Positions 1-64,000 of a stretch of 64,000 nt of DNA are shown piece by piece. The stretch covers positions 992,001 to 1,056,000 of the forward strand of contig OZ237745.1 of assembly GCA_965178125.1 (NCBI GenBank). The letters run 5' to 3'. Within the stretch, counting starts at the first letter, position 1, and each line of letters starts with the position of its first letter. The translations under genes were made by a program, and so were the position numbers. The notes under the pieces are model-generated. The model saw nothing but the letters and a program-made list of their open reading frames with translations. It was not told the DNA's origin and ran no database searches. This DNA is from Bilabrum cf. latius (taxonomy: Eukaryota).

Positions 1-627
1 CACCTTCGCGAGGAATGACTTGGGGTTGGACACACCGTACTTGACGTCGCGCACGGAGCTCAGGTCTGCGCCCTGGAAGATGCCGCGGCTGTCTTGCTTG
101 GCCTGTGCGCTCAAACGTTCCAGTTCTTCGTAGTTGTAAGCTTTCCCAAATCGAGTCGCGGATTCGCCGTCGACGTGGGCCCAACCATGCTCGGCAACAA
201 GCTCGCCAACGTTGCGGTCGCCCAGGTGCACGGCCGCAAACTCGCGCTACTTCGATGCATCACGGCCTCTAGAATACTCTAACTGAAATCGTACCTTCTT
301 GCCGATGAGAAGCCTCCGCAGGAACTCGCGAGATGGCCAAGCAAAGGCCTCATCGTCAGTCTCGCTATGAAAAGCTAGGCGAGGTGCGGACAAGGAGGAT
401 AGGTTCAGCTTCTTCATTGGAGGCCGTCCACGAGTATCATCACCCATTACGATGATCGTGTCCCCAGACAAAACCTCAACAACAGTGCCGGGCTTCCCGA
501 GATCCGACGCTGCGCAACGTGCCGAAAGAATCAAGAGCATATTTCGACCCATGAAACACAGGAATGAAAGATTGAGCGAATCAACAAACAAATATACATC
601 AACTATCGGGCAGAGCCACTCACCCAT
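1..627 (-). CDS. SND1: Tudor staphylococcal nuclease (Tudor-SN/p100), 5' part; continues beyond window start
   Basis: ATG at 627-625, then a GT-AG intron (623-510). Exon 2 gives MASDLGKPGTVVEVLSGDT...LNLSSLSAPRL...DEAFAWPSREFLRRLLIGKKVRFQLEY, typical of SN domain 1. Similarity continues past the in-frame TAG at 249-247 as REFAAVHLGDRNVGELVAEHGWAHV. Confidence 0.88.
510..623 (-). other. Spliceosomal intron (114 nt) in SND1
   Basis: ATG G|GTGAGT donor and TTGCGCAG| acceptor; removal gives a normal SND1-like N-terminus. Confidence 0.75.
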
Positions 628-760
628 GGCTCAGAAGGCTGTCAGAGTGACTATTATTTCCCGAGCGGTGGCACAAAATCGGATCAGGGTGATATTTATA
701 CCGTGCACTTTTGCGAGTTGCATTTTTGAGCTGCAGCAATTCATACGGCTTTTGTCGGTG

Positions 761-1351
761 ATGGATCCTGTTGGTGGAAGTTTATCATATTATGGCGTGA
801 AATCATAGCTACATACGACAACTTCTGTGATTGGAGAAGAAGATAGAGCATCTGGTACGGTAGAACGAACTTATCGACTGCACCTCAGACCACAGCGACA
901 TGTTCGTTGGACTGGAGATGTTGTTGACAACGAGCACCTAGACAAGAAGAAGTCAAATGTATGTTGCATTTATCATCCACCGAAACGATGGGACGAGAGC
1001 AGTTCTGACAGCGACAGCTCCAGCGGAGACACTGCCCGGAGAGTATCTGCTAGGCGACGCTATCAGAGACAGCGACGATTGTCTTCGGAATCCAGCAATT
1101 CCTCATCAGATGATCGGAGAATCGTAGTTTCTCGTGCAGCGAGTGATCCGATGAACTCAAGCTCGGGCCCAACTTTGGGCGTGGCAAGCTCGGACCCTTC
1201 AACACGCGCGCAGGAGCGGTCCTCTGGCTTTGCCCAATGTGCCAGCTCGAAATCTCCAGTTGCAGAGCAATTTGGTGCATTGGTTGCAAAACCTTCTGCC
1301 GATTAGGCCGGTGTCCGTGCATCGCGGGATGGAGCCGGTGGAGGCACGTGA
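761..1351 (+). CDS. YPI1: Protein phosphatase 1 inhibitor-3 (Ypi1/PPP1R11 family)
   Basis: [27 protein letters not shown] contains the RVxW PP1-docking motif and the CCIYH motif, followed by an SSSDSDSSS tract. With TAG as sense (806, 1304) the frame runs from ATG 761 to TGA 1349-1351. The start codon is inferred. Confidence 0.85.
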
Positions 1352-2427
1352 CGTGCAGACTGTAGTAGTCTACTTGGTTGGGTTCTCTGGCTTGCTGTGC
1401 AGTATCCTTTAGTTCTTTAGTTGGACCAGGCAGGATGGACTCTGCGTAGAGTTGCTCGCAGGTGGACAGCTTAATTTGCGGTCTGACTGCGATGGGCCAC
1501 AGGTCAAGCAGTCACGAAAGGGGTAGGAACTGCATTGAATGGGACTCACGCATGAGCGCGTGAGCCAGATGGTGACGTGGATAGCATAGATATCCGTCTA
1601 GACTCATGCGATGGAATTCGCCCGTGTATCATGCTGGGGAAACTGGGAACACCAGTGGGCTCAAGACAGGCCTGCTGCCGGCGAGGTGCCCGTAATGAAT
1701 GCCGCCGGCGAGAACTAATGCATTGAAGCCAGCACACCTTGTATTCCACCGTGGCTGGACATATACAAGCTTGTGTCGCTAGGCTCCAATAAGCTCAGCA
1801 TTAGGAAGACCGCGAACGAGCGAACGAATCTTGATTTTCGGGCAATCTGTGCGCTGTGTGGAGGTGGCTTCGATGCTAGCGTCCGAGTCCGCGATTGCCC
1901 AGCAATTGCTGGAGTCCACAACCCATGCGTGCCTCCCATTCTCATGGGTGGTTGGTGCGGGTAAAAAAGATCAGGGTGGCACCGATTCCCTGTTGATTTG
2001 TGTATGCGACCCTATCTTGACATGGGCCTGTGGAGTCAGCACCCGATCGTGGCATCAAAGGGCAGGAAGAATGGATGGGCCATTGGAGCCGTCGGTTGGC
2101 ATCGACACCCAGAGGGGTACACCCTCGGGCGAATGTGGTGGCAGGGCGATGACGAGGTTGGTAAGGATGATATAAATTATGATGTTAGCGGTTGTAGGTG
2201 GTCACTGTGTACCGGTGCCCGGATCCTCTGGGCGTGGAGGGCTCTGGGCAAGTGCGTGTGACAGCTGCGGCTGGATGCCCGTGAGCTATTCAGCAAGGTC
2301 GAAGCACACTGGATAAAGGTGGTCTGTGTGGCTCTGGATGGCTGCGCGGGGTTCGTGGAGCAGGTGTGGGTGCCTACTGTAAGGAGAGGAGGAATGGGGG
2401 TGGTGAGAAGGATGATGAGGGGTTGTG

Positions 2428-2529
2428 GGAGGAGCTCGCCCTGCCCCTGTGCATGCTGACGGACGTGCTTATCGAGTGCTTGGAGCCAGACGCTATCGCG
2501 TTCCGCGCGAGCGATCGAGAGCTAGGGGC
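2428..2529 (+). repeat. Dispersed ~100-bp repeat, second copy inverted at 15920-16020
   Basis: Core gagtgcttggagccagacgct...gagcgatcgagagctaggggc is shared with the reverse complement of 15920-16020. Confidence 0.7.
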
Positions 2530-3275: not shown

Positions 3276-3372
3276 CCCCCCCCTTCAAGTTGGCGGCTCG
3301 GCGGGGGTCTGTCTGCCCCGCCCCCCCGCCGGAGTCTGCGGGTGTGCATTTATATTCTATCCTTGCGATATA

Positions 3373-14367: not shown

Positions 14368-17300
14368 TCTTGGTTCAGCTGGAGTCCCTTTTTTTTTGTA
14401 CTTTCGTGAAAGGTGTGTTGTGACGATTACATCGTTTCAAGGCGTATTCCCCCCGTGTTCCACTCTCACTCCGCCCTGCAAATCCCTCGCAAGCTCTTCT
14501 ATCCTGTCACCCTCCACAATCCCCCTCCTTTTTTAAAAAACAGCATTCCACTCCTCCGCACCTGATGACCCCAATCATCTTCTCCTCCACTAATTCCTCG
14601 CCCCTTTTCGGTGAACCGTCGCCCCTCTCCTTCTGCTCCGTCCTCACCCGGTAAGACTTGGGATCAGGCCCGACTGATTCCGAGTCGTTCGGGTCCTGGT
14701 TTGTGCTCCCGAGGCACTTCCCTTGGGGCAAGTGCTCGAGTGGAGGCTGAGAAGGAACACGCAGAACCACAGATATAGAGATCTGGGCACTGCCCTAGGG
14801 TGAGGCTGGTGCGGGCCAGCTCACCCCGTCCCCATCGCCGTCTTTCTCAGCAATTACCAACCGGCAGGTTGGACAGAGATTAATTATGCCTTCGTATTAT
14901 AACAAATCGGGACCCCCCCCTCCCTTCGCCCACCCCGCCGCTCCTATACTCCCTCACTAGCCGCTCTGTTTCAAATTGGGAGTCGCCGGCGGAGCGCGCG
15001 GAGAGTTCCGGTTTGATCGGACCGTGGAGAGTGGCCCTGGAATCTGGCACCCTTGTGGGAGCACGCGCAATAACTAGCGCAAAAAGATATAAATCTACGG
15101 CACAAGGTAACTGATACCTAGTGCACGAGGCGCACAACGGACGTTGTAGCTAAAGTTGACCCACCCACCCGTGAGCTGAACAGAGGGAGTGCGACCACAA
15201 GTGGAGCACCACCCATTCACGCCAGGGGCGATGAAGAGGATTCGGGACTAGGGGACCCAGCACACCGCATATGGTAGTATTTTTTGTTTGGTTGGTACTG
15301 ATTGAATTGATATCTGCCGGTAGGGAGCTCACGTTCCCTTCGACGACATGATGGGTGGAGGTGAGGGCGGGCCGAGGGCGGCCGCCCTGTGGTGGTGCTG
15401 GCGGAGGGCCAGCCCCCATCATCACTGTCGCCGTCTTTCTCAGCAACTGTACCCGGCAGGGTAGATAGCGATTACGTATGCCACAGATCCATCAACTCTG
15501 TACGGTCTCTCTCACTCCTCCGCATCGCTACGTCGCATCTAAGCCTGCACCTCGAGCGGGTCCTGCGCCCACCGCGCGACCTCAATCTCAAAAACCTTGC
15601 TGGCTAGCCTCACCAACACAGATGTGGCTTGACCTCAGCTTCCGCCACTCATGTCAAGATCAACGGAGTCTCCCAAGCAGTGCCTATCCGGGGGATGAAC
15701 TGACGGTGTACATACACAGACTGCAAAATAGTACCCGGGACTAGGTTCGATTAGTGCCCAAGCTAAGAGCTCATTTCATGGCCTCACCCAGTAGCTTTAC
15801 GCGCGCCTCGTGCCCTCCCACCCTTTTTGCCTCCGCAGAAGTCACCCACATCCACACCATCACCCCTTTCACCTACATTTGCACCTTCACCTACAGCACC
15901 CCCGTCTTGGGCCCCCAAAGCCCCTAGCTCTCGATCGCTCGTGCGGAACGCAACAGCGTCTGGCTCCAAGCACTCGCTGAACACGTCCGTCTGATGCTCA
16001 GCATACACAGGAGCTCCTCCCGTAACCCCGTGCAACGATGATAAGAGGTCGAGGACAGTAAGGGGGAGCTGGTAAGGGGTGGGAACATGCATTCCAGAGC
16101 AGTAAAGAGGGGGGTTGTGGTGGGTGAGAGGAGTGATGGAAGAGTCTGGCAGGAGGCGCGGGAAGTGCGGGGCTGAGCAAGGACGGAAAACGGGGCGAAT
16201 ATCCATACGTCATTCAATACTATATAGTCGTTAAACTACATACACTCGCGAGGGAAAGCAATTTGGTGCGAAGAGGCAAGCTGTTCCACATCTCGGGCCA
16301 GGCTGTTTTACTGGGTCGCTTCCATATCCAGGGGACTGAAGACCCGGTAAACCTCCCTGATGAGATCCCCACGATACTTCCTGGTCTCCCTGGCCGATTG
16401 CTTGAGCACGACGTCCACCAGATCCAAGGGATTGCTAGCAACCCGATGGTACATGGTGTGGAAGACGCACGCATCACCGCGCAAGTGCTCGCTCTACTAG
16501 GCGGGAATCGAGATCCTGGCCGTGGCAATGACCAACCAGCCCTCACGAGCCCCCGTCGGGCGCACGGCCTTTGAGGAGTCCTCCAGAGGCTTGGCATGCG
16601 CTCGGCGGGCACGCGAAGGATACGACGTGCTCGTACCTCTGGGTACCACTGACGTGGGACTCCAGCTGAACCAAGATCAGTCCCATGTCCGCTGCCACGC
16701 GTTCCCAGTGATCAGCTCTCCGCTGTTCTCCCCGTTGTATCCCCAAAGGCGCGGCTCGAACTCATCTCGCCTATGAATGCCTGCAGCCACGAGGTTATCG
16801 TTGGCAAAATCCCACAGCACCTCCCCATTCTTGTCAATGACGTACAGGTCGCCGCGGACATCAAAGATCAGCTGGTAGTCGCCCGAGGCGCCCTCTCCAT
16901 CCGAGTCAGAGTCCCAAATAGCCCCATCGGGGCCATACATCACGAGGTTGCCGTCGCTCTGCATCAACAGCGCGTACCTCGGGTCGCCGGCATCCCTCAG
17001 TGTCTCACCCTGCCTCAAACGCTCCCCCCTGAAGATCGACGACCGGATGCTCCGGCCCATACGAAGAGATCCGACGGCGCTCGAGCAGAACGCACGCGCC
17101 CCGGGGTCGCAAATGGGATCGCCGTCCTTATACTCAAGGCCCTCCATTCCATCTGCCCACTCACCGTCCCCATAGTTGCCCCCATAGAAGCTGTCCGTAT
17201 CGGTAGACCAAATAGCTTCGCCGGTTTTGCGGTAGACGACGAGATTTCCATCCCCTTGCAGCTCTAGCGACCTCACAGGGCGCTTGCGTCCAGTCTCGAT

Positions 17301-20300
17301 CCTCCACCTCTCGCTGCCAGAGTCTTTGTCGACCACCACCAGGTCACCGCCGCTCTCCAACACGAAGACATACGTGCCACCGTACAGCCCGTAGCCTTTG
17401 TCACCACCATTGCTCGCCCAGATGACCTCCTCGTCGTCATTACCCCAGAAGTTATTGTACTTGCGATTCAAGATCAAGTTGCCGTCGCTCTGCATCCGCA
17501 AGTCCAGCGCCCTCTCATCTTCATCGCTGAATCCACCATGGCGCTGGATGGCGTAGGGCGATTGGAGCCCCTGTCCAGGGCCCATCCTGTCGAGGTAGTC
17601 GTGGCTGCTGCGCACATCGCAGGCCCCCAGATCGCTCGCCCGACATACCTTCGAGACTTCGGCTGCAGCACGCCTCTTGTCACTCAGCTGTAGGAGGACC
17701 GCATCCGTAGCGTGGTCGGACAGCCCCTGGCCCTCCTTGGCTGTCCCAGCGATCGCCCTCTCGATCACCTCCAGGATGGAGGAAGACCCGGGCTTGCCAT
17801 CCCCGTCAGCTGAGATGCCCTCCAGCATAGCGCACTCTAGCACCGCCTTCGCAAATACTGGCAACCGGGAGCCCCCTCCTGCCACAATCTCGACCACTGT
17901 AGAGTTGGCCGCCACCCGCAGTCCCATCGCTCCGACCGCAGCTTCCCAATCATCGCCTTCCCTGATTTTGAGTATGGCTGCCTGGTACAGCTGCAAATTC
18001 TCACGCGCCTTGCGCTACGCTTCCACCAGCATGCTTCCTTGCTCCTCATCAAATCCAGCAAGGACCGTGTCAGACACAAGCCGGCCAATAGGCACCCCTG
18101 CATCCACCCCAAAGCGACGCACTGCCTCGGCGTATCGCTCGTCTGCCATCGACAGTTTGGCGTCTGCAAACCCCGTCAGAACCCTCCAGAGCTCAGCACC
18201 AACCCCCTTGACCGCTCGCGCCTCATCGTCCACCCAGGGCCGCAGGGCAGCGGCCTGTTGCCAAGCGCCGGAATCTGTCTGAAGCCCTTGGAGCTCTTCC
18301 AGACCAGCGCCAATGCCCTAAAAGGACATTATCGCGCCATCAATGTCTGCGTCGATGCCACCGCTATTGCCAGCCAGTGCCATGGTCAAAGCGAGAGGAT
18401 GGCCCTCGGGGGCGAAGGACGCACAGGTGAGGGCTGCAGCAGCCGCTCGGGCCTCCCGCTTGAGTTCTTGCAACGTTGCATCCGGCACATTGGCCACAAG
18501 TCCAGGGAACAATGAAGCGGCAGTCGAGATGCCCTTACTCTCAGCGAGAGAAACGACACTATGCACGGCAGTGGCGCGGCGGTACAACCACACGATGTCC
18601 TTGAGCTTGAGGGCAGCAACAGCAAGTCTCGCTCCTCCAGGACTGGCGTCCATGAGCATCGCCAGATCACGCATCGAGTCCAGTCCAGTGCTACTCTCCT
18701 AGAACATCGCAATTACACTACTTGGGACCTTGATCTTGCCCGCAGCGGTGGTAATGCTGGAGGGGAGTTTGCCGATCCTCTTCAGCAGCTGTCTACCGCG
18801 ATGCCGCTGCTACACCACAGCAACGTCTCGATTGCTTTCTGTCTCCGGGGAATACCCTCCTTGCAAAATGGCTACAGCTGGGGTCGGACCACCCTGCTGT
18901 GCCAGCAAGTTGCCGTCTGACCCAGTGTCCTCCTCGCTGTTGTCCGCCGAAAAGAGTGCCTCTTCGAACATCTCGCTGGCGTCCTTGATCCCCATCCCAG
19001 CGATTGCCACCTCGGGAGCACCGCTACAGGTATCATTCTGCGCTGATGATCCATGGCCCTAGTCAATATCGCTCCCATGGAAGGGACCCACACCTCGAAG
19101 CCCCCTGACCGCTTCGAGAATCTCGGCCACGTCGAACAGCACACCAAGCTACTCCGCGTGGTCAAGCACCGCGCCCTCCGTGGCAACGCCCATGCCTTCC
19201 ACTAGGTGCAGCGCACGCTCTCGGTCCTCCTCGGCGCGCACACGCGCTTCAGATGCTGCCAGCATCACTGCTGCGACAGGCAGCTTCAACCCGCTGATTT
19301 TCTCGGTGACGCGACCCACGTCTGCTCCCACACGGGTTGCCAGCTACGTCAGCAGCGCTACGCGTTGCAGCTGGAGCTCCTCCCACCCGGACCTTCCAGC
19401 CTTGACCGACGCACTCACAACATCTGCATACAATGACCCGTTGAGAGAGGCTCCAGAGCCGCCGAAGCGGTACGTCGCCACGTAGGCTGGCACCTGCGGC
19501 CGCAGGACGGAAGCAATACTGGACAGCCTCAAGATGATGGTCTTGACGCAGCTATCGGATGAAAACCCGAGAAGATCCACACCCTGCATCCCCATCAGCT
19601 CCACATACTGGTCCAGCACCTTGTGCTCCAGCCCGGCCAGCTCCATCCCACCGACGGGGAGAACAGCTGCTAGGCCGAGAACGCTTGCCGTCTTCCCCAC
19701 ATCACGAAGCCTCTCCATGCTTGGAGCGCTGTCACTGCCGAAGAACTCCCTGATGATCCCTTGCTCATCAATGGCAACCGCTGGGCCCGACTTGCTCGCA
19801 TTGGCCTTGGCTGTCTCGATGCATGACAGGGCAGAAATGGCAGGGTCCACCGACTCCAACTCCTCGAGTTTCGATCGAAGCGCGGATTTCTCTGCGTGGG
19901 ACAGCTTCCCTTCTGCGGACCCACTGCTAGTCACCAGAGCCTCAATCGCTGCCTTTGTGGATCGTGCACGATCCATGAATGCGGCTGCGATGTTGGGGCA
20001 CGTGCGGGTACTGACGCCACCTGGGGAGCCGGGACCATGCTTCGTGCTGGAGGTCCCATGCAGCCGTGCATGCCGAAGGGCATATCTATTCATGGACCGC
20101 CGGGAATGCTGCAGCTGCAGCAGCACAGAGCCTTCCCCTGCCTGGCCCAGAACTCCACCTTTCTTCCCCTTCTCGTATTTCTCGTACTGCTTCTGGGGGA
20201 TCCACGTCTTCTTCAGGTCTTCGGCCGCGGCAATCAGCTGGTCTACGGCTTCGTCCGAGATTGTGTCCGGGTCGAAGGCCATCGCGTGGCCAGGCTTGTG

Positions 20301-23300
20301 ATAGATCACCACGGGCTTCTTGCCCATGACCTCAAGGTTGGTGAAATGCTACACGGGAGCTACTTCTATCTCCCAATCCGCCTTGTTGTTGACGTAGATG
20401 ATCGGCCGATCCAGTGCTTCCACCATGGCATGGTTAACCTCGTGCACGCTAGTGTACATGCCCTGCCTGTCCGCCGTGAGCATGTACGACGCAGCATCGC
20501 CTCCCGACAAATCAACACCCCTCTTCGAGGTAAACGATACGTCCATGTCCTTGAGCTTCTCCCCGAACTTGCGGCGAAGGCTCGCGGCGTCCTTGATCTC
20601 GGGCGTCTGCCGCAGCACGCTGTCGAAGTAGCAGTTGCCGCGACCCCGCACCTCCTCGACGCGCAGCTTGTCTACCACACTCTTCAGCTTCTTGCCCTGC
20701 GCATCCCCCATCAGCTTCGCTGCCTGGTCCATCGATGATTGCATACTCATCGTATTCTTGATGTCGTACACCATCTGCCACCTCGTCTAAGCCAAGCGCC
20801 CCAGGATGCGGTCGGTCTGCCCGTTCGTCAGGCACAGGGGGTCGCTCGGGTCAAACAGCCGGTCCAGGGTCTTGATGTCCATCTTCGCCGCACTGTCGAT
20901 CTTGCCCGTCTCTGCCGAAAGTGGTGGCTGAGGGCGGGCGAGCACGTACTCAGCCTGCTGCTTCGTCATGACGCCGCGAGACCGGCTGTGGGCCACCACA
21001 GCATCGTCGATGGCCCGGTCCATGTTGGCCAGCGTGGTAGCGTCCTTTGGTGCCACACCTCCGTGCGCCTTCGTGGTCCAAAGGTCCAGCCTGGTCATCT
21101 TCTCGTCCAGCTGGTTCTTCTTCAGGTATGAAGCCAGCAGGTCCGAGGACCGCATGGCACCCATGAAATCGTCGTCTCGCAGCAGCTAGGACCCAAGCCC
21201 TTCGGCGACCATGCTATCGGGGCCCACCAGCCCAAGGTCCCGCTTCGCCTTCGTCCCCATCAGCTGAACGGGATCCGCCAGAGACGTGAGCAGCTCCATC
21301 TCGTCCTTCTTGCCCACCAGCTAGCACAACTCGTCGCTGAAGCGGAACGACGAAGGCATGCTGTCGTAGTGCTCCAGACCCTGCTCCGCCAACGCTGTCA
21401 GAGAGCCATCCTTGGTCACCAGCTCCTTGCGTGTCATGAGGGCGGGGTTCTTGGGGGCCGAGTCGTCCACCCTCTTGACGGTCCCGTCCTTGATTCCTTC
21501 CTTGAGCCTGTCGATCTGCTCCTTCAAGACAGAGTCCGAGAAGACGCTCTCCGATACACTCGACCCATCGGCCTTCTTGGACAAGTGAAGCACCGGGTGG
21601 TCAGCGGGAATGAGAGCCTTGTACTCTGCCACGAGATCCGAGGCCGCAACCTCGGGGTTAGCGGTCACGCGATCCACCACGAGATTGATCTGCTTCTGCC
21701 GGAAGGCCAGCGAGTCCAGCACCGACTGGGGCAGCACGGGGCGACGGGACACTAGCTTGCCTGCCACCTACTCTTTCACACTTTCTGGCAGGCCCTGCAG
21801 GACGGCAGCAACGTCCGTCTCACTCATGCCTTTGATCAGTCCCTGTCTGCCTGACGAAAACACATCCCTTACCTCGAACGTGGGAAAGTACCCGCCAACA
21901 AAGTCCTGCTTCACACCCTTGCGGAGAGCCCGGCGACACTCCATCACCTCATCCGATGCCCCCGCCCACTTCCTCGTCGACAGCCCCGAAAGCGCCTTTG
22001 ACTTGGCGCTCGAGCCGATGGGCTCTCGTGATGGCAGAGTGAATTTCATGTCGGGACCGACATGCACTATATCATCTAGTACCCCCTGGCGCAGTTCTTC
22101 GCTCTCGACCGCCTATGGCATGATGTCAACGTCACGGTACCGGTCCACGCCAGTGTGCAGAGCAGAGTCGTCCAGCATCGTCTTCACATCTTTGCTGCCT
22201 TGCGTGGCACCATCGACTGCACTATTTGGAATGCCCGATTGGTAGAAGTCCTGTAGCTCTCTAGCGGCATCCCTGCCCACCAACTCTTCCAGGTCACCGA
22301 GTCCGCCCCCTGTGACTCGTCTCATCAAGATGTGGATCTCGTCCGTCGGTAGGTCTTTCACGAAGGCGAGTGCCTGTTGCTGCTCTTTGGCCCACTTGCC
22401 CTTGCCAGTCAGCCACCAGAACCAGCTGTTTGCCTTCATCGCGTCACGATACATGGCGCACCGGCTGGCATCTAGCATGACGTCCAGACGCACCTCTGGG
22501 CTGGCCTTGACAGTCTTGCGCCAGGCCTGCAGCCACTTCTTGCGGGCACGCTTGGTGGAGATGCCGGCCTGCCGGAGGAGGTCCGAGAAAGGCGATCCCT
22601 TGGGGGCCACCATCGCCTCCAGCAGCTCGGCCCTTGCGCGAGCCTCTACTGCCGCCATGGCACTGCTCGACTTGTCCATAACCATTACCCTAGCGGTCAC
22701 CTTCTTGATCTGCTTCGAGGCAGTCGCACCCCTCTCCAGCAGCTCATCCATCACGGGCCTTGTCGTCTCGGTGGCCTTGTGCATCGCCAGCAGAACCTCC
22801 TCTTGAATGGCATCTCCCACCGGTGGCTTATTCTTGTCGATTCGGGCAAGCATCTCCAATAGGACAGACTTCATGCGAGCGCCGCCGTCAAGCTCCGAAA
22901 TCGCAGTATTGCGGTGCCACTGTCGTGGCTTGAGCTGCTGCCACAGCGATGCGGCATCCATGTTCGATGGGGACTCTAGCATGCCGCCAATGGCACCCGT
23001 ATTGAGGCTAGGCTATGCTTTCTTGACTTCCACGAGGCGCTGATACAGACTTCCATCCACGTCACTGCCGTCAAGTAGCCTCACAAGCATTTCATTCTTG
23101 TCGCGGGCCACAGCATCTACGATTGCCTACGCAGGGACAAGGCTGTCGGGATTCGCAGGGTCTAGCACCATCGCTAAGGCTTTGCGCGCTTCTTGCAGCA
23201 CGTTCGATTGGCCATGATACACCCCTATTGAGTCATCAAGGTGAACGTAAACCGAGCTGAGCTGCTCAAGATTGGCTTCTGGCTGCAGCATCTGATCCAC

Positions 23301-23700
23301 GATGGTCTTGATCTTGCTTTCCAGCTGTAGGCCCGCATTCAGCTTCGTTGCAGCTGGGCCACCTTCGGCCAGTGTCGATACAACCCCGTCCAGCACGCCA
23401 GAACGGCCAAGGAAGGTGATGATGGAATCTTCCAGGGGCCCTCCAGGGCGTAGAGCCGCATTCTTGATGACTCTGTCAAGCGCAAGTGCGACAAGCTTCG
23501 ATCGCAGCTCCTGTGTGATCCTCTCGATATCCCTGGGCGGGGCGGCCTTGGCGACTCCCACTATGACGTCGATCACCGACTCGCCTGGCACATCATCGAA
23601 AGCAGCAATGGCTTTGAGCAGCTCGCTCGGTTTTTCGTCAAGCATTCGCCGAAGCATCTGCAGGTAGCCCTCGCTGCCCATGCTCTTCCGCAGATCGTTC
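7350..23700. repeat. Large inverted repeat: ~7-kb arms (about 7350-14388 and 16656-23700) around a ~2.3-kb spacer
   Basis: Equivalent positions sum to a constant 31044 (14367/16677, 13048/17996, 8062/22982, 7917/23127), so the arms are colinear with no net indel. The translated products are near-identical. Confidence 0.9.
15920..16020 (-). repeat. Dispersed ~100-bp repeat (partner of 2428-2529)
   Basis: The reverse complement matches 2428-2529 with a few substitutions and indels. Confidence 0.7.
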
Positions 23701-26700
23701 CAGCCGATCCGAAACATAATAAGCTGGGAAAGATATAAATTTTCTTCCCACTCATCGACGGTAGAATCAATCTTCTCCTTGACGTACTTGGCCTTCTCCG
23801 CCGGATCCGTGATCTTCATGAGGTCCATGTCCAGGTCCGTTTCTGCCTAAGGTACGTTCTCATCGACGATGTCAAGCCCAGGCTCCATGTCCTCCGCGTC
23901 CAGGCTATCCAGGAGATTCTTGCCCTCGCCATCTCCCGATGACTACGCAATGCTACCGACCCCATCCGACTCGCCGGCGCTAGCATCTACTCCAGGTCCC
24001 TTGGCATCCGACACGTCACCCAGTTCGTCCACGGCGCCCATATCCTTCGAGCCCTTCGACAATCCTGCTTTACTGCCCTTCCCGTACTTCTCGTACTGCT
24101 GCTGAGGGATCCACGTCTTCTTCAGGTCTTCGGCCGTAGCAATCAGCTGGTCTACGGCTTCGTCCGAGATTGTGTCCGGGTCGAAGGCCATCGCGTGGCC
24201 AGGCTCGTTATAGATCACCACGGGCTTCTTGCCCTTAACTTTCGGGTTGGTGTAATGCTACACGGGAGCTATTTTCATATCCCAATCCGCCTTGTCGTTG
24301 ACGTAGATGATCGGCCGATCCAGTGCTTCCACCATGGCTTGGTTGAATTCCTTCACCCTTGTGTACATGCCCTGCCTGTCCGCCGTGAGCATGTACGACG
24401 CAGCATCGCCTCCCGACAAATCAGCACCCCTCTTCGAGGTAAACGATATGTCCATGCCCTCAAGCTTCTCCCCGAACTTGCGGCGAAGGCTCGCGGCATC
24501 CTTGATCTCGGGCGTCTGCCGCAGCACGCTGTCGAAGTAGCAGTTGCCGCGACCCCGCACCTCCTCGACGCGCAGCTTGTCTACCACACTCTTCAGCTTC
24601 TTGCCCTGCGCATCCCCTAACAATTTTGCGGTCTCATCCATTGATGATTGCATACTCATCGTGTTCGCGATGTCGTGCACCATCTGCAACCTCGTCTAAG
24701 CCAAGCGCCCCAGGATGCGGTCGGTCTGCCCGTTCGTCAGGCACAGGGGGTCGCTCGGGTCAAACAGCCGGTCCAGGGTCTTGATGTCCATCTTCGCCGC
24801 ACTGTCGATCTTGCCCGTCTCTGCCGAAAGTGGTGGCTGAGGGCGGGCGAGCACGTACTCAGCCTGCTGCTTCGTCATGACGCCGCGAGACCGGCTGTGG
24901 GCCACCACAGCATCGTCGATGGCCCGGTCCATGTTGGCCAGCGTGGTAGCGTCCTTTGGTGCCACACCTCCGTGCGCCTTCGTGGTCCAAAGGTCCAGCC
25001 TGGTCATCTTCTCGTCCAGCTGGTTCTTCTTCAGGTATGAAGCCAGCAGGTCCGAGGACCGCATGGCACCCATGAAATCGTCGTCTCGCAGCAGCTAGGA
25101 CCCAAGCCCTTCGGCGACCATGCTATCGGGGCCCACCAGCCCAAGGTCCCGCTTCGCCTTCGTCCCCATCAGCTGAACGGGATCCGCCAGAGACGTGAGC
25201 AGCTCCATCTCGTCCTTCTTGCCCACCAGCTAGCACAACTCGTCGCTGAAGCGGAACGACGAAGGCATGCTGTCGTAGTGCTCCAGACCCTGCTCCGCCA
25301 ACGCTGTCAGAGAGCCATCCTTGGTCACCAGCTCCTTGCGGGTCATGAGGGCGGGGTTCTTGGGGGCCGAGTCGTCCACCCTCTTGACGGTCCCGTCCTT
25401 GATTCCTTCCTTGAGCCTGTCGATCTGCTCCTTCAAGACAGAGTCCGAGAAGACGCTCTCCGATACACTCGACCCATCGGCCTTCTTGGACAAGTGAAGC
25501 ACCGGGTGGTCAGCGGGAATGAGAGCCTTGTACTCTGCCACGAGATCCGAGGCCGCAACCTCGGGGTTAGCGGTCACGCGATCCACCACGAGATTGATCT
25601 GCTTCTGCCGGAAGGCCAGCGAGTCCAGCTCCGACTGGGGCAGCACGGGGCGACGGGACACTAGCTTGCCTGCCACCTACTCTTTCACACTTTCTGGCAG
25701 GCCCTGCAGGACGGCAGCAACGTCCGTCTCACTCATGCCTTTGATCAGTCCCTGTCTCCCTAACAAAGTCACATCCCTTACCTCGAACGTGGGAAAGTAC
25801 CCGCCAACAAAGTCCTGCTTCACACCCTTGCGGAGAGCCCGGCGACACTCCATCACCTCATCCGATGCCCCCGCCCACTTCCTCGTTGACAGCCCCGAAA
25901 GCGCCTTTGACTTGGCGCTCGAGCCGATGGGCTCTCGTGATGGCAGAATGGGTATCTGTTTCGGACCGGCAGGCTTCATTCCATCCACTATGCCCTGGCG
26001 CAGCTCTTCGCTCTCGACCGCCTATGGCATGATGTCAACGTCACGGTACCGGTCCACGCCAGTGTGCAGGGCAGAGTCGTCCCAGGCCTGGCTCAGCTCC
26101 TCGATATCGATATCACCCGCTTCAGACATGGTGCGCTCACTGGTCACAAACCCAGCGGAGTCCATGCTATCCGCGTTGTGCGCATGGAACAGCCGCTCAG
26201 AAATGTCTTTCCCAACGGCTTCCTCCAAGTCACCTCCACCACTTCCAACTGCCCGCCGCACAAGGAGCTCCACCTCATCGTCTGTCATCATCACCAGGGC
26301 AGCAGCCGACTGTTGCTGCTCTTTGGCCCACTTGCCCTTGCCAGTCAGCCACCAGAACCAGCTGTCTGCCTTCATCGCGTCACGATACATGCCGCGCCGG
26401 CTGGCATCTAGCATGACGTCTAGATGCACCTGTGGGCTGGCCTTGACAGTCTTGCGCCAGGCCTGCAGCCACTTCTTGCGGGCGCTCTTGGTAGCCGCCC
26501 CGGACTGCTTCAGCACGTCAGTCAAGTAGTCCCCGCCATTGCGTCCCATCATGGCCTCCAGCAACGCCACCCGAGTCCTCGCCTGGCCCACTGACAAGCC
26601 GGGCAGCTCTCGCTTGGTCTGTTGAATCACCGCGTGGGCGGTGTTTCGCACGAGCTCTAACGTCTTGGTGCCCTCTGCCAGCAGCTTGTCCATCTCGGGC

Positions 26701-29700
26701 TTGGCTGCGTTCGGAATGCGCGACAGCGACTCCAGCAGTCGTTCCATCACGTCATTGGACAACGATCCTGGCTTCGTTGCCGCGAACTTCAGCTGGGACT
26801 TGTATAGCTGGCTCAGGAAAAGCCCATCATCCAAACGGGAGAATGACTGCAGCTTATCCCACACGGTAGAGCTGAGCATCTCGTCTGGGTCACGCATCAG
26901 CGTTCTTCCCATAACATGAAAGATTCTGGCCGCATTGGACATGTCCACTGTCTTGTCAGCCGCCCGCATGCTGGCAATCCGTTCGAACAGGCTGCCATGC
27001 ACTCCATCGCCGTCCAGCAGCTGGATTAAGTACGCCTTGTTGCTTCCGAGGGTCTCTGAGATGTCCCCTACCAGCTATTGGCATGCTTCCTCCCCAGGCA
27101 CAAAGAGCTTTGCGAGCTCGTCCGACACTTGCTTCAGGTGCACGCTATCGGTTGCACCGCCTGGGAAGGCATCTGTCACGCGAAACAAAAGAGCCAGCTG
27201 GTCTCTGCTTGCTGACTCGGACTTGAGCATCGGATCCACCATCGCATCCTTGATGCCTTTGGCGAGGTCGAGCTTCTTGCCCAGCTCAAGGGCAGCGCTA
27301 TCCCCCTTGGCGAGCGCTTTAGCCACCCCATCGAGCACACCCTGCCTTCGCAGGAAGCCCATCGCCACGCTGCGCTTCGTCGCCTCCTGTCCGGCTATGT
27401 GGCCAAGGGCATTCGGAATGACCGCGGCATAGACCGCATCCGCTGCTGCTCGCTACGCAGCATCATTGACAGCAGTGCCCTTGGCCACACCCACCACCGC
27501 GTCCACCACTGACTGACTCCCCGACACCGACGCCAGCCCCTGCAGAAGTTGATCGGGCTTCTCTTTAGCGACCCGGTGCAGCATCTGCAGGTAGCCCTCG
27601 CTGCCCATGCTCTTCCGCAGATCGTCCCAGCCGGCCAGGCTAGACAGCTGTTTCTTCATCTCGGGTGTGTCGAAGTTGCTCACGGCCTCTGCCACTTTCT
27701 GCTCGACGTACTTGGCCTTCTCCGCCGGATCCGTGATCTTCATGAGGGCATCGTCCAGGTCCGTCTCGTCCAGGCTATCAAGGAGATTCTTGCCCTCACC
27801 ATCTACGGATCCGGGCTCAATGTCCTCCGCGTCCAGGCTATCCAGGAGATTCTTGCCCTCACCATCTACGGATCCGGGCTCAATGTCCTCCGCGTCCAGG
27901 CTATCCAGGAGATTCTTGCCCTCGCCATCTCCCGACGACTACGCAATGCTACCAACCTCATCCGACTCGCCAGCACTAGCATCTACTCCAGGCCCCTTGG
28001 CACCCGACACGTCACCCACTTCGTCCACGGCGCTCACATCCTTCGAGCCCTTCGACAATCCTGCTTTCTGGCCCTTCCCGTATTTCTCGTACTGCTTCTG
28101 GGGGATCCACGTCGACTCTATATCTTGGGCCATAGCTCTAAGCTGGTCTACGGCTTCGTCCGAGATACTGTCCGGATCGAAGGCCATCGCGTGGCCAGGC
28201 TTGTTATAGATCACCACGGGCTTCTTGCCATCGACCCTTGGGTTGGTGTAATGCTGCACGGGAGCCGTTTTCATGTCCCAATCCGCCTTATCATTGACGT
28301 AGATAATCGGCCGATCCAGTGCTTCCACCATGGCTTCGTTAACTTCGTTCACGCTTGCATACATGCCCTCCCTGTCCCCGGTGAGCATGTACGACGCAGC
28401 ATCGCCTCCCGACAAACTAGCATCCTTACTTGTGCTTATCTGAATGTCCATGTCTTTGAGCTTCTCCCCGAACTTGCGGCGAAGGCTCGCGGCGTCCTTG
28501 ATCTCGGGCGTCTGCCGCAGCACGCTGTCGAAGTAGCAGTTGCCGCGGCCGCGCACCTCCTCGACGCGCAGCTTTTCTACCACACTCTTCAGCTTCTTGC
28601 CCTGCGCATCCCCCAACAGCTTCGCGGCCTGGTCCATCGATGATTGCATGCTTTTCGTGTTCGCGATGTCGTGCACCATCTGCCACCTCGTCTGCGCCAA
28701 GCGCCCCAGGATGCGGTCGGTCTGCCCGTTCGTCAGGCACAGGGGGTCGCTCGGGTCAAACAGCCGGTCCAGGGTCTTGATGTCCATCTTCGCCGCACTG
28801 CCGATCTTGCCCGTCTCTGCCGAAAGTGGTGGCTGAGGGCGGGCGAGCACGTACTCAGCCTGCTGCTGCGTCATAGCGCCGCGAGACCGGCTGTGGGCCA
28901 CCACAGCATCGTCGATGGCCCGGTCCATGTTGGCCAGCGCGGTAGCGTCCTTTGGTGCCACGCCTCCGTGCGCCTTCGTGGTCCAAAGGTCCAGCCTGGT
29001 CATCTTCTCGTCCAGCTGGTTCTTCTTCAGGTATGAAGCCAGCAGGTCCGAGGACCGCATGGCCCCTATGAAATCGTCGTCTTGCAGCAGCTTGGACGCA
29101 AGTTCTTCGGCGACCATGCTATCGGGGCCCACCAGCCCAAGGTCCCGCTTCGCCTTCGTCCTCATCAGCTGAACGGGATCCGCCAGAGACGTGAGCAGCT
29201 CCGCCTCGTCCTTCTTGCCCACCAGCTGGCACAACTCATCGCTGAAGCGGAACGACGAAGGCATGCTGTCGTAGTGCTCCAGGCCCTGCTACGCCAACGC
29301 AGTGAGAGAGCCATCCTTGGTCACCAGCTCCTTGCGTGTCATGAGGGCGGGGTTCTTGGGGGCCGAGTCGTCCACCCTCTTGACGGTCCCGTCCTTGATT
29401 CCTTCCTTGAGCCTGTCGATCTGCTCCTTCAAGACAGAGTCCGAGAAGACGCTCTCCGATACACTCGACCCATCGGCCTTCTTGGACAAGTGCAGCACCG
29501 GGTGGTCAGCGGGAATGAGAGCCTTGTACTCCTCCACGAGATCCGAGGCCGCAACCTCGGGATTAGCGGTCACGCGATCCACCACGAGATTGATCTGCTT
29601 CTGCCGGAAGGCCAGCGAGTCCAGCTCTGACTGGGGCAGCACGGGGCGACGGGACACTAGCTTGCCTGCTACCTACTCTCTTGCACCCTTTGGCAGGCCC

Positions 29701-37883: not shown

Positions 37884-37886
37884 ACG

Positions 37887-56985: not shown

Positions 56986-57126
56986 ATGCAATATATGCAG
57001 AGTGGGTTAAGTAAATACGTGCCCTCTTATGTCACAGACAAGCTACTTAATCCGCCGGCAGTCAAGGCTGGCACGCTGGCTCACAGCTCGCCACTCGAGG
57101 GGTCCAACCCCTCGGTGTGGCTGGTT

Positions 57127-60100: not shown

Positions 60101-62031
60101 CCTGTCACAGTGCCAGCTCTGTCCTTGTCCCTGCCCTCCTCGGGCACAATGGCTAGCCTTGCCGCGCTGACCTCTGTCTGGGCCCTGCCCCTGCCCACTC
60201 GCCTGCTCGTGCCCTTTGCGGGCAGTTGTCTCTCCAGCTGGGCGCCCCTTGAGCCAGACCTGTCGCGCGCCCGGGGGGGCAGGCATCCTGACTGTTTCTT
60301 GTTGGCGGTCGCCGACCGGGATGACCCCGGGGGCGTGCCCAGCCCTCCATCCACGGAGCTTGGCCGCCTGCAAGAGCCGATGCCCATGGCCGCACCGCGC
60401 GCCCTGCCAGCGGCATCAGATGCCGTGCACTCGCCGGCCTCCACGCGAGGAGGGTCGCCCTGACCGCTGGCATCTGTTTCCCACAACCGAACTGCGAAGG
60501 ACGCGGGCGATGCAACTGGCATGCTCTCGGCTCTGTCTCTAATACCGTCTGCTTCGATGCCCGCGTGGTGCTGCAGGCTGGCAGCGCCACTACCTGACAT
60601 GCTACCGCTCTCCGAGCGCCTGTCGGTGCTGTCTACCTCGCCGAACCCAGCCGCCAGGTCAGCCAGCAGCCGCCCGTGCGACTCGCTCCTGCGTCGCTTG
60701 TGATCCGGCTGTGGGCTGTCGGCAACGCTGCTGCCGTGCTGGCCCGACCGGTCGTGCTGATCTCGGTCCATGCCAGGAGACTGTGCACCCAGGCTTGCCC
60801 CCGAGGCAGCCCTCGATAGGGGTGCAATCCCCGCACCGTGACCATGGTCACAGCCACGGCCGTGACCATGACCATGACCGTGACCATGACTGGACGAGGA
60901 AGAGAAGAAGGCAGGGGGTGAGGGCCCTGCGAGCGCCCTCTCGCCCTCGAAGGAGCCAGCAAGCAGCTGTTCCTGCACACCGACAGAGCCACGGCCCATC
61001 GCACCTGACGAGTGCCTGTGGTCGCGGCTGCACTCGCTCGCACAGTCGCTGCCCGGCCCGCCGCGCCGCTTGCGGCCGATGGATCTTGGGGCTGGGGCTC
61101 CTCCTCCACCACTGTTTGGGCTTCCCGATGAGGCTGGTACAGGTACACGCATCATGCCTGGCGTGGTTCCAAGCAAACCGCCGCTTGTGCTGCTGCTGTG
61201 TCGGCTCTGCCTGCTTCCATTGATTGGGAGACCGCCTCGTCCGCGCCCCGTGACATCAGAACCACTCCGGGTGCGAGACAGGCCTGTCCACTGCTGCGGG
61301 CAGGTTTCGACACGGAGGGTAGATTTCGTGCGGCGCATGCCTTGTTGTGCCCTGATTCCCGCACTTCGAACTGTGCGCGGTTGAGTGGCGTTGCGACAGT
61401 CTTCGCCAATATCACTGATTGGCGAGTCCTTCGGAGAGCAAGTTGCCGTTGCACTAGCCGTACTTGGTAGCTAGTGTGCCTATGCACTGCTCATAGGAGC
61501 TGATATTGCAATCGAATTCCTGGCTGCAGTTAAATCAGGCCCGGATGCCTCGACTCCGACGGCTGCATTCGAATTATCTTGCGGCTGGTGTGTGCTTGAG
61601 TCGATAATCCGACTTGAAGCGCTACACTGTTGGGTATTCGGGTTAACCTGTGCAAAGGCGCGGGAGCGTCCTCGAGCGATGCTGGATGAAGGAGCTTTGG
61701 ACGGCAGATCGGCCGAGGCACCACAGCTACTGGTGACAGCTACCCGCTCGCTCGCCTCTGGCTCAAGTTTGGATGATTTCACCACGCCCATTACGCCATC
61801 CAATCCATCTTCATACCTTGATGATGACTAATCCATCGACAGCAGCTTTAATGCCTTCCCTGATTTCGAATTTCGGACGCTTTCTATGTCCCGAGACGAA
61901 ATGGCGCCTTCTGTGGCTGGGGTCGCAACGCCGATCCCTTGCATTCTTTCGCAAATGGTCCGATCTGAAGCCGCTGATACACTATTTTTACCTCTTCTGT
62001 GGGTAGAAGGCGCAGTTGGAGTGCCATCCAT
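57127..62031 (-). CDS. CDC25: Cdc25 M-phase inducer phosphatase (~1,634 aa)
   Basis: Rhodanese-type catalytic domain: ISPETL, VFDCRFGYEYMGGHISGA, VFHCEYSKNRGPRM (HCX5R), RDR..YPKL..EMYLL.QGY, C.P..GYVSM. Long disordered N-terminus. Frame is continuous through TAGs to TGA 57129-57127; start ATG 62031 is inferred. Confidence 0.88.
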
Positions 62032-62168
62032 GGCCTGCACGGGCCCAGGTTGTCTCTCGCGCCCGTTGCCGCGCACGATTGTCCAGACGCAAACCGGAAT
62101 TAATCGATTAGTTGCGCGTTAAAAAAGGGAAAATTCGATTTACGCAAGAAGCTCATAATACTGGCCGC

Positions 62169-63559
62169 ATGTTGGCAGAGACGCTACGATAGCTCGATGC
62201 CTACCCAAAACTTAAAGATGATGCTAGGGACTCGACCGTATCTGGCGGCTTGCGTGAGTTGTTGAGATCTTGAGCAGGCCTGCAATTCGACATGTTGATG
62301 AAGCGTCTCTACTATTGAAATCATTCTTGTGGGCCGGTCGCAGTGTCGTCTGGGGCGATCCTTTTGATCTTAGTATTGGTAATCTAGGATGTACGGGACT
62401 ATATGACTGTCGTGAGTCCTATGCGCGCGTGTCTGCAGCGTCCTCCGAATCATCAGGAGTGGGCTTCGCTTCGCACGCTAGCGTTGTGTGGCGTCAATCG
62501 TATTCCTCGCCGCAGGAATCCATCGAAACAATGGAGGTAGATACGAAAAGGAACGCCCACATGCGGATCAACTTTGACCTTAGTTTCCCTAAAGTGCCGT
62601 GCACCATGATCAGTGTGGATGCCGAAGATGTTACAAAGTCGCCCCATAAGGGGCTCATGCACAACGTTTTCAAGCGTAGACTTGACAGATACGGGCGATC
62701 TACGGGAACGGTAGAGAGAAATAACCTAGGCAACACTCTTTCTTCCGAGGAAGAGCTGAAGGCTTCGAAAGCAAGGGACATTGCTAGCGGGCGCCCAACC
62801 ATCACGGAGACAGAGGCGAAGACCCAGGGGGCTGATTGCCCTTCTTGTTATGGCGCCGGATCTCCAGGGCAGTGTTGCTAGACGTGTGACGAGGTGCGAG
62901 AGCTGTACAGGCAGAAGGGCTGGAGCTTCGAGCCCTCGGGTGTGGCGCAGTGCAGGAAGGAGGGGCTGGCCGATGACGTGGCCTCGGGGAAGGAGGAGGG
63001 ATGCAACATATACGGGTACGTGAAGGTGCCGAAGGTAGCAGGGAACATTCATTTTGCGCCCGGGACGGGATTCTCTCAGCTGTTCGGCAGCCACGAGGAC
63101 CTCATGGCGCTCACCCACGGCAAGTTTAACTCGACGCACACCATCAACTCGCTGAGCTTCGGCAGGTTCTACCCCAGCCGAACCAACCCGCTGGATGGGG
63201 TCTATCACGAGGTGGGGGATGGGGCGGCGATGTACCAGTACTTCCTGAAAGTGGTGCCCACCGAGTACAGGTCGCTGGCAGGCACTAGGTATTCGACCTA
63301 CCAGTTCGCCGCCACGTCGCACCAGCGGCACCTCAACCTGGAGACGCAGAGGGGCCTGCCCGGAGTGTACTTCTACTATGACCTGTCCCCCATTCGAGTG
63401 CGGATCAGGGAGCAGTCGCAGTCTTTCGCCCACTTGCTGACCGGGCTGGTGGCCATCGTGGGAGGTGTCATGTCTCTGGCTGGGTTTATCGATAGCCTCG
63501 TGCACCAGGCTTCCACCACTGCGGGGGCGGGGAGCCGCAGGTCCGGGCTGCTGGGATGA
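62169..63559 (+). CDS. ERGIC3: ER-Golgi intermediate compartment protein 3 / Erv46 (~398 aa; exons 62169-62253, 62344-62411, 62516-63559)
   Basis: MLAETLR(TAG)LDAYPK..SGGL, a TM helix, INFDLSFPKVPC, CPSCYGA..CC(TAG)TCDEVRELYRQKGW, EGCNIYGYVKVPKVAGNIHFAPG, YQYFLKVVPT, LPGVYFYYDLSPI and a C-terminal TM. Two GTGAGT...CAG introns; TGA stop. Confidence 0.92.
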
Positions 63560-63862
63560 AGGGAGGCGCGGCTTCGCTTGAGAAGCTTTGCCGCGATGCA
63601 GCGCCCAGTGGCACGGTTGCGGTGGGAGCTGATCCGGATGTGATAGTGCGGTTAGTCGCCACCAGGAATTGAATGGACAAGGTCTAAGTGTGATAAAATG
63701 GGTGTTTCGGCTTGTACGCAACTGTCATCACGCAACTGTCATCACGCAACACAGCTACCCCCTCCTGCGGATGCCCGCTCGCACCGCTGGCTTCAAAGCC
63801 TCGCGGTGAGCTTGCGCATGCCATGCGACTCGGGGACTCGTCAAGCACTGCGCGTTCACCCG

Positions 63863-64000
63863 TCATCGCCCGCCCCTCGAAGCCTTGCCTTTCCACACCG
63901 ACCCGCCCGTCTTCTTAGAGGGGGGCCCTGCCAGCGAGCTGGCCAGGTCGGCAGCAGACCGGCCCTGCGAGGAAGAGGCTCGTCGCCTGCTGCTGCTGCT
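63863..64000 (-). CDS. Probable 3' end of a gene entering from beyond the window
   Basis: Ser-rich frame ...SAADLASSLAGPPSKKTGGSVWKGKASRGGR-TGA (63865-63863); compositional evidence only. Confidence 0.3.
   Translation of the reverse strand, partial: SSSSRRRASSSQGRSAADLASSLAGPPSKKTGGSVWKGKASRGGR

Follow-up and report, generated by a model that had tools for sequence, protein, structure and literature searches.

In-frame UAG codons read as sense, probably as glutamine, in nuclear genes of Bilabrum cf. latius

Do the UAG codons that interrupt gene after gene in one stretch of the genome of Bilabrum cf. latius terminate translation, or are they read as an amino acid and, if so, as which? The stretch, referred to below as the window, comprises 64,000 nucleotides (assembly GCA_965178125.1, contig OZ237745.1, forward-strand positions 992,001 to 1,056,000; coordinates here count from its first base), and an earlier note on the sequence had proposed that UAG is a sense codon while UAA and UGA remain stops. 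Under the standard code the longest stop-to-stop open reading frame (ORF) of the window is 1,034 amino acids (aa). Treating TAG alone as sense opens ORFs of 6,168, 3,481, 1,810, 1,801 and 1,663 aa; reading through TAA alone leaves the list almost the same (1,034, 613, 492 aa and so on) with no gain, and reading through TGA alone yields only scattered ORFs of less than 1,000 aa, as expected since the sequence is GC-rich (56–62% G+C). At the combined TAA and TGA triplet frequency of 0.0166, the natural logarithm of the probability that 6,168 random codons contain neither is about −104. Nine gene models were counted as complete (Table 1): Ypi1, giant genes A and B, a C2H2 zinc-finger gene, a 1,796-aa low-complexity gene, a kelch-like gene, a GT47/GT34 glycosyltransferase, Cdc25 and the last exon of ERGIC3. 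Their 16,440 codons include 117 in-frame TAGs and not one TAA or TGA, whereas the +1 frame holds 146 TAG, 52 TAA and 332 TGA and the +2 frame 132 TAG, 82 TAA and 328 TGA, i.e. 134 TAA and 660 TGA in the two shifted frames together. TAG is similarly frequent in and out of frame, and TAA and TGA are wholly excluded in frame. With the SND1 exon and ERGIC3 exons 1 and 2 added, in-frame TAGs number 120 in ten gene models; the reading frame of giant gene A is open only if TAG is read through. These statistics, taken together with the homology, the independent contigs and the related environmental sequence described below, uphold the earlier proposal: it is virtually certain that UAG is a sense codon in this nuclear code, and we are only slightly less confident that UAA and UGA serve as stops.

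Homology runs on past the TAGs in ERGIC3, SND1, the zinc-finger gene, the GT47/GT34 gene and Cdc25. The identities first suggested for the genes hold for Ypi1, the zinc finger, the glycosyltransferase (Exostosin_GT47 plus Glyco_transf_34), ERGIC3 (COPIIcoated_ERV) and the SNase domain of SND1, all through Pfam, and for Cdc25 through a Protein Data Bank (PDB) match to Cdc25B (E 1.8e-14) in which the active-site stretch HCE..RGPRM is aligned; the Kelch assignment has only Pfam matches below threshold (E 0.013–0.023). Seven of the nine models terminate at TGA and two at TAA, in every case at the position that the earlier note had given. The alignment of the GT47/GT34 protein to its homolog P0123 stops no more than 12 residues short of the C-terminus, in support of the TAA at 56983 as the true end of that gene.

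At least part of the region 52001–62000 is present in eleven public sequencing runs from six studies, and half or more of its words are found in six of the runs. Contigs of four runs from three studies (X1, X5, X6 and X7) were compared with 44001–64000. X1 is DNA-like, with a flat depth of 46.3 and a single contig that spans genes and introns alike. X5, X6 and X7, from two further studies, have no recorded library type, and the transcript nature of these contigs is deduced from splice joints, contig ends and depth; X5 is automatically labelled 'RNA? (probably DNA)' and that run may be DNA in part, so that it is the spliced contigs on which the argument relies. The ERGIC3 joints 62253>62344 and 62411>62516 occur in X5, X6 and X7, and the skipped 90 and 104 bases (62254–62343 and 62412–62515) start with GT and end with AG, more fully with GTGAGT and CAG. 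A further joint, 49570>49820 in X5 and X7, removes an intron of 249 bases (49571–49819) directly upstream of the ATG of the kelch-like gene, and its CT..AC ends correspond to GT..AG on the minus strand. None of these splice joints is present in X1. Contigs also end at gene borders (52080–56931 and 52080–57002 for the glycosyltransferase, 57056–62040 for Cdc25, 48139–49570 for the kelch-like gene), and depth in X5 is uneven between neighbouring genes, e.g. 12.8, 74.5 and 202.8. The genome is intron-poor, as had been claimed, yet has introns: two in ERGIC3 and one in the kelch-like gene, all three spliceosomal, within the window.

The gene models in 44001–64000 contain 37 TAGs, of which 37 are covered by pieces from X1, 35 from X5, 15 from X6 and 14 from X7, with no alternative letter at any of them; the only three differences in these 20 kb all fall within a repeat at 50416–50576. 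Reads or mRNA with CAG at the TAG sites had been named as a possible refutation of the sense reading, and the contigs have no such letter. Since the TAGs are identical in DNA and in spliced contigs, editing, assembly error and hidden introns are excluded, so it is the ribosome that decodes these codons; neither editing nor splicing takes them out. Stop-codon RNA editing, by which a transcript would differ from the genome at its stops, is not seen in these contigs. The database entries P0001 (221 aa) and P0124 (402 aa) match ERGIC3 and SND1, respectively, at 99% identity; both are fragments that lie downstream of a TAG, the product expected of standard-code gene calling in this organism. Gene callers that use the standard code cut proteins at every TAG; standard-code annotation of this genome is broken throughout, and the public proteome will stay fragmented, as P0001 and P0124 are, until the code is set right. 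The C-terminus of P0124 was considered as a marker of TAG decoding and rejected, as it apparently runs into an intron.

A scan of metagenome contigs with P0124 as query gave one locus, L001 (2,047 bp, 56% G+C), whose SND1 is 77% identical to that of the window over 178 codons. The comparison comprises 59 identical codons, 78 synonymous differences and 39 non-synonymous differences, a pattern that indicates strong purifying selection with silent sites near saturation. L001 has an in-frame TAG of its own (317–319), in the conserved stretch GKPPMK-TAG-LNLSSL, and the exon is free of in-frame TAA and TGA throughout. The use of UAG as sense is thus not limited to one strain and is also found in a minimum of one related environmental organism. 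Downstream of the exon, L001 1570–2047 carries a short direct repeat and one peptide-like string in two frames, with no obvious next exon in that segment.

The encoded residue was approached through columns in which a TAG can be aligned to homologs. hmmbuild profile log-odds over five columns, namely four well-sampled columns of ERGIC3 and SND1 and the TAG column of L001, were 4.5 bits for Asn, 4.1 for Gln, 2.9 for Lys, 2.5 for Ser, 2.0 for Thr, 1.9 for Glu, −3.7 for Tyr, −5.7 for Leu and −7.0 for Trp. In a Codetta-like test, four domain regions (SNase, ERV, zf-C2H2 and GT47) were translated with TAG as different residues and the Pfam bits summed, which gave 429.1 for Asn, 427.5 for Gln, 424.7 for Ser, 424.5 for Glu and 424.4 for Lys; the zinc-finger region scored 73.2 bits with Leu and 76.2 with Gln. 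Among the one-base neighbours of UAG (Gln, Glu, Lys, Ser, Leu, Tyr and Trp), Gln scores best, by about 3 bits only. The residue is clearly polar, with Leu, Tyr and Trp disfavoured, and Gln is the best single-step candidate, an assignment that we consider probable.

Further observations favour Gln. The SND1 TAG of the window (247–249) stands opposite CAG in L001, and the column of the TAG in L001 reads Q26 T13 L6 R5 E1 V1 N1 in 53 distant homologs, with no Lys; TAG as Gln needs one substitution across both SND1 columns and TAG as Lys needs two. A tract of CAA, CAG and TAG codons in the zinc-finger gene (Table 1) points the same way. Gln is also the commonest meaning among the UAG-only cases in the part of PMC11687900 drawn on here, and the near-cognate tRNAs of yeast insert Gln, Tyr and Lys at UAG according to an excerpt of PMC4150775. 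Residues within three positions of a TAG gave 3.1 bits for Ala, 1.6 for Ser, 0.9 for Gln, −8.4 for Glu and −10.4 for Lys, a test that is confounded by gene composition and is a weak hint only.

The two giant genes offer a second set of aligned codons. They lie in an inverted duplication (window 3358–14388 versus 16656–35683), in which 7338–14388 matches 23706–16656 at 97.6% nucleotide identity and 3358–7158 matches 35683–31875 at 94.1%; because the duplication is inverted, the genes converge tail to tail. A copy of a small ORF, with two to three TAGs, is found upstream of each (3373–3918 and 35084–35716). Giant gene B has in addition an internal tandem duplication of about 4 kb (23878–27929 versus 27874–31919, 92.9%), so that, with the part common to gene A included, giant gene B carries a module of about 1,250 aa in three copies. 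In some columns A equals B1 and B3 equals B2, which hints at gene conversion. An exhaustive profile search with a 1,200-aa query containing 11 TAGs found two matches among 1.84 billion representatives, and these two relatives provide two usable TAG columns (Glu and Lys) and two poorly aligned ones.

In well-aligned paralog columns TAG faces CAG about five times (A1608, A1617, A1872, A2050 and A2196). A single TTG stands opposite TAG, where the alignment is poor, and TCG, TGG and TAC/TAT never do. The ten TAG/CAG, TAG/GAG and TAG/AAG pairs listed in the earlier note were all found where it had placed them. The paralog alignments do show that the second- and third-position neighbours (Ser, Trp, Leu and Tyr) are not tolerated at these sites and that Gln, Glu and Lys are. 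The youngest duplicates differ by 124 non-synonymous and 64 synonymous changes, and the paralog codon pairs were rejected as a means of discriminating Gln, Glu and Lys on account of this weak constraint.

Several observations weigh against UAG as Gln, and some bear on the case as a whole. No alignable TAG column lies at a conserved position. In 35 homologs the three ERGIC3 columns read R7 K6 S5 G4 N3 (position 8), S17 A4 T4 C3 Y3 (position 43) and N20 S8 A2 D2 E2 Q1 (position 173), with Ser at position 173 in the nearest relatives, and the SND1 TAG column of the window reads N14 G13 T12 K5 ... Q1 in 53 homologs. A Cdc25 TAG is aligned to Val of human Cdc25B; the GT47/GT34 TAGs, set against the single homolog P0123, meet a poorly aligned residue at 869, Pro at 877 and Ala at 1759; and the giant-gene homolog P0121 has Glu and Lys at two TAG columns. 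Asn exceeds Gln both in the five-column log-odds and in the Pfam sums. In the paralogs GAG stands opposite TAG in about five columns (A631, A914, A940, A1851 and B1194), which equals the count for CAG, and AAG does so in three (A1723, A1917 and A2465), and the pairs mostly mirror one-base neighbours because the giant genes are weakly constrained. The TAG of L001 stands opposite AAG (Lys) in the window, so that by themselves the two ortholog columns favour neither Gln nor Lys over the other. The clustering of TAGs near gene ends, described below, could instead reflect continued termination at UAG close to 3' ends. The 64-kb window contains no tRNA gene, gives no Rfam match and does not include the eRF1 gene. 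An ORF in which TAG is sense can never end at TAG, and the nine ends at TGA or TAA out of nine are thus no independent test; the whole evidence base is 64 kb plus one 2-kb contig. The suggestion 'probably Gln' consequently stands as the best guess, from columns that are variable and do not separate Gln confidently from Lys, Glu, Ser or Asn, and the accompanying caveat that Glu was not excluded was right and is to be widened to Lys, Ser and Asn. The statement as a whole, i.e. that UAG has changed from stop to sense, that UAA and UGA are the sole terminators and that the residue is Gln, we hold on balance to be correct.

The alternative that fares best, although we think it unlikely, is that UAG means Glu, Ser or Asn, or a mixture of residues through ambiguous decoding. 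The TAG/GAG pairs and the Glu of P0121 speak for Glu, two of the three ERGIC3 columns are rich in Ser or Asn with Ser in the nearest relatives, and Asn tops the log-odds; UAG as Ser in Scotinosphaera and UAG as Glu in the ciliate PL0344 are both in print (PMC11687900, in the part used here). If TAG were Ser, TCG would be its synonymous neighbour, yet no paralog alignment has a TAG/TCG pair; Glu requires two substitutions across the pair of SND1 ortholog columns, which hold Gln and Lys; the Pfam sums for Ser and Glu are 3 bits under that for Gln; and Asn would, by the anticodon rules, need a tRNA whose anticodon is more than one position away from CUA.

Somewhat less likely again, and compatible with any choice of residue, is a dual, position-dependent UAG, sense inside genes and a terminator near the 3' end of the mRNA, in which case the short tails beyond late TAGs would be untranslated, as may be compared with ciliates that have ambiguous stop/sense codes. 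Four of the nine genes have a TAG within their last 20 codons, with six TAGs in such windows in total (57142–57156, 42248–42250, 1304–1306 and 56923–56925), and a permutation in which TAGs were placed uniformly per gene gave P = 0.02 for genes and 0.001 for TAGs. The tail of Cdc25 reads GTA TAG TAG GAG CAT TAG GAA GGC ACC CTG TGA, and in the zinc-finger gene a TAG lies 6 codons ahead of the TGA. This excess favours a dual UAG, but UAG stops that merely became sense codons would be expected to leave an identical pattern, and the late TAG of the GT47/GT34 gene lies inside a stretch that is aligned to P0123 through to the end, so that this TAG at least is read through. In the codes of Condylostoma and the karyorelicts one codon is both sense and the regular terminator; here all nine models reach a TGA or TAA, and late TAGs are in excess. 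Most simply, the late TAGs would be former terminators past which translation now continues as far as the following UGA or UAA. In the youngest giant-gene duplicates 7 of 20 TAG-bearing columns differ, compared with 196 of 2,425 codons overall, and this, together with the position of all alignable TAGs in variable columns, fits a codon that entered genes mainly at unconstrained sites.

UAG as Lys, through a CUA tRNA derived from tRNA-Lys(CUU), we regard as improbable. It draws on the AAG opposite the TAG of L001, the three TAG/AAG paralog columns, the Lys at column A1872 of P0121, log-odds for Lys close to those for Gln, and the natural insertion of Lys, among others, by near-cognate tRNAs at yeast UAG codons (PMC4150775, as excerpted). 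Against it stand the 26 Gln and no Lys among 53 homologs at the TAG column of L001, the CAG of L001 opposite the SND1 TAG of the window, a Pfam sum 3.1 bits below that for Gln, a neighbour composition that is Gln-like and not Lys-like by the weak heuristic given above, and the tract of CAA, CAG and TAG codons; the portions of PMC11687900 and PMC5304391 drawn on here list no UAG-only case with Lys. That the TAGs are never translated, being sequencing or assembly errors, sites edited to CAG, intronic sequence or the marks of dead genes, is exceedingly improbable and found no support beyond the missing library types and the label of X5, given the same letters in four runs of three studies, X5–X7 contigs that are spliced at GT..AG introns elsewhere and collinear with the genome across the TAGs, the complete lack of in-frame TAA and TGA where dead genes would gain all three stops, and the same feature in the organism of L001.

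For UAG as Gln, the mechanism would, on the model of other UAG-only codes, have two components: a CUA-anticodon tRNA, able to pair with UAG and not with UAA and most simply a tRNA-Gln(CUG) copy altered by mutation, and an eRF1 whose affinity for UAG may have been lost. In the sections of PMC5304391 used here, CUA is given as the sole possible anticodon where UAG is decoded and UAA ignored, a single mutation from that of tRNA-Gln(CUG); eRF1 would also be expected to recognise UAG less strongly if reassignment is to be efficient, the stop-recognition motifs being GTS, NIKS and YxCxxxF, and the eRF1 of Iotanema carries T32G in the GTS motif.

The best named matches of ERGIC3 are from Cafeteria roenbergensis (49%) and a MAST-4 stramenopile (45%). 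In a quick IQ-TREE analysis of 68 rows, comprising the query and the 67 of P0002–P0069 with at least 330 aa, in which the named rows are only stramenopiles and plants, the spliced ERGIC3 falls in an 8-row clade with the Cafeteria rows (SH-aLRT, the Shimodaira–Hasegawa-like approximate likelihood ratio test, 97). The best named SND1 matches, from a word-limited search, are haptophytes (Prymnesium, 46% and 43%), which calls for caution over the placement and does not contradict it. The organism is probably a bicosoecid-related stramenopile, and its G+C content, ordinary GT..AG introns and ERGIC3 tree distinguish it from both ciliates and fornicates. An independent origin of the code change, as first suggested, is plausible because the ERGIC3 tree puts the organism by Cafeteria and not within any lineage known to have changed UAG alone; the placement is tentative, and in our overall verdict the origin is probably independent.

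Nuclear changes that split UAG from UAA are few, with one fornicate, one rhizarian, one green alga and some ciliates in the parts of PMC11687900 and PMC5304391 on which this comparison draws. UAG alone means Gln in Iotanema spirale, Protocruzia tuzeti and two phyllopharyngean ciliate lineages, and Leu in another phyllopharyngean ciliate and in the rhizarian exLh (PMC11687900, PMC5304391); it means Ser in the green alga Scotinosphaera, and the ciliate PL0344 has UAA as Lys and UAG as Glu (PMC11687900). Both UAR codons mean Gln (NCBI table 6) in many ciliates, hexamitid diplomonads, ulvophytes, Streblomastix and an aphelid (PMC11687900). The closest likeness in kind to the present case is in Iotanema, a fornicate, where UAG alone is reassigned, UAA is still a stop, Gln is favoured and the same CUA tRNA and altered eRF1 are proposed (PMC5304391, in part); Iotanema is a metamonad whose UAG meaning was drawn from many conserved genes and whose eRF1 was inspected, whereas here ERGIC3 groups with Cafeteria and the basis is a 64-kb window. 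The phyllopharyngeans and Protocruzia likewise have UAG uncoupled from UAA, repeatedly and recently according to the excerpted account (PMC11687900), but these are ciliates, and the present sequence has 56–62% G+C, conventional GT..AG introns and an ERGIC3 that falls with stramenopiles. The uncultured rhizarian exLh shares a UAG-only change in a free-living protist that is not a ciliate (PMC5304391, in part) and differs in that its UAG is Leu, a residue that here scores −5.7 bits over the five columns and 3 bits lower in the zinc finger and has one weakly aligned TAG/TTG pair. In Scotinosphaera and PL0344 the meaning of UAG differs from that of UAA, and their Ser and Glu are among the candidates here (PMC11687900, in part); UAA is also sense in PL0344, whereas here TAA is absent in frame from all 16,440 codons and terminates two genes, and the UAG = Ser of Scotinosphaera contrasts with the lack of TAG/TCG paralog pairs. 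The UAR codes would share with our case a change from stop to Gln through a mutated tRNA-Gln, proposed here by analogy (PMC11687900, in part), and differ in that UAA is reassigned together with UAG there and strictly avoided in frame here.

We found no nuclear stop-codon reassignment reported for a stramenopile in the full-text literature, a search that left subscription journals and supplements outside its scope, and the sole 'genetic code' match, in an overview of stramenopiles, concerned mitochondrial codes. The sequencing runs are from 2025, and a description may be coming. What we report is another case of a known, rare kind of code change, in a lineage with at least two members. Tentatively, and with rather less than even confidence, we suggest that it is the first nuclear code change in stramenopiles, an independent UAG-only switch from stop to Gln in a bicosoecid-related lineage of at least two members, with traces of the switch still visible (tails beyond former UAG stops, and TAGs nearly all at unconstrained sites) and possibly some terminator function retained at 3' ends. 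Each independent case tests the idea that UAG and UAA are coupled only via eRF1 and wobble, and shows which amino acids and eRF1 changes recur. A free-living, apparently culturable and already sequenced protist, with DNA and transcript data in three studies, would make this case experimentally tractable.

Table 1. Gene models and the codon tract discussed in the text, with window coordinates
Feature	Coordinates	Strand	Details
SND1 N-terminal exon (SNase domain)	1..630	-	Passes window start; TAG 247-249; Pfam SNase 27.3 bits; SND1 homologs
Ypi1/PPP1R11-like phosphatase inhibitor	452..1351	+	TAG 806-808, 1304-1306; TGA 1349; PF07491 79.6 bits
Giant gene A, 3,419 aa	4108..14367	+	22 in-frame TAG; TGA 14365; B_lectin match; paralog of giant B
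Giant gene B, 5,996 aa from first ATG	16677..34667	-	38 in-frame TAG; TGA 16677; module of ~1,250 aa x3
C2H2 zinc-finger protein, 799 aa	39869..42268	+	14 TAG, one within a finger (41363-41365); TGA 42266; Pfam zf-C2H2
Tract CAA TAG CAA TAG CAG CAG TAG AAG TAG CTG CAA	42134..42166	+	Within zinc-finger gene; QQQQQQQKQLQ if TAG = Gln
Low-complexity gene, 1,796 aa	42341..47731	-	15 TAG; TGA 42341; no family matched
Kelch-like secreted protein, 377 aa	48431..49564	-	1 TAG (49052-49054); TAA 48431; weak Kelch matches only
GT47 + GT34 glycosyltransferase fusion, 1,778 aa	51649..56985	+	14 TAG; TAA 56983; Pfam
Cdc25 phosphatase, 1,634 aa	57127..62031	-	10 TAG, three in last 11 codons (57142-57156); TGA 57127; PDB Cdc25B
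ERGIC3/Erv46, 398 aa spliced	62169..63559	+	Exons 62169-62253, 62344-62411, 62516-63559; TAG 62190-62192, 62385-62387, 62879-62881; TGA 63557; Pfam ERV 246-249 bits

Some features of the window stand apart from the question of the code. The B_lectin (bulb-lectin) matches of giant protein A lie near its C-terminus, and one giant-protein stretch with matches (e.g. 10378–10806) contains the motif GRGNCYFD, which presumably recalls the OTU-type cysteine proteases. A repeated element at 2600–3349, 37658–38165 and 39364–39927 encodes a conserved peptide (..LPEPKVWLGQ..PNNYIFKLDLPRFQRSRPS..) and occurs in several copies in both orientations; 37902–38165 and 39638–39388 match at 89%, and one copy has a weak hAT dimerisation match (E 0.002) that is below the cut-off. 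The depth of X1 rises to 1,878, 1,588 and 482 in the bins 46002–46668, 50004–50670 and 60676–61342, against about 46 elsewhere, i.e. 10–40 times higher, with many loose ends, and these bins are simple-sequence or dispersed repeats in or between genes. Finally, the 5' regions of the 1,796-aa gene (47009–47997) and of the GT47/GT34 gene (51086–51758) have two similar segments in common, one of 340 bases (90.9% identity) and one of 299 bases (87.3%), both oriented alike on the plus strand.

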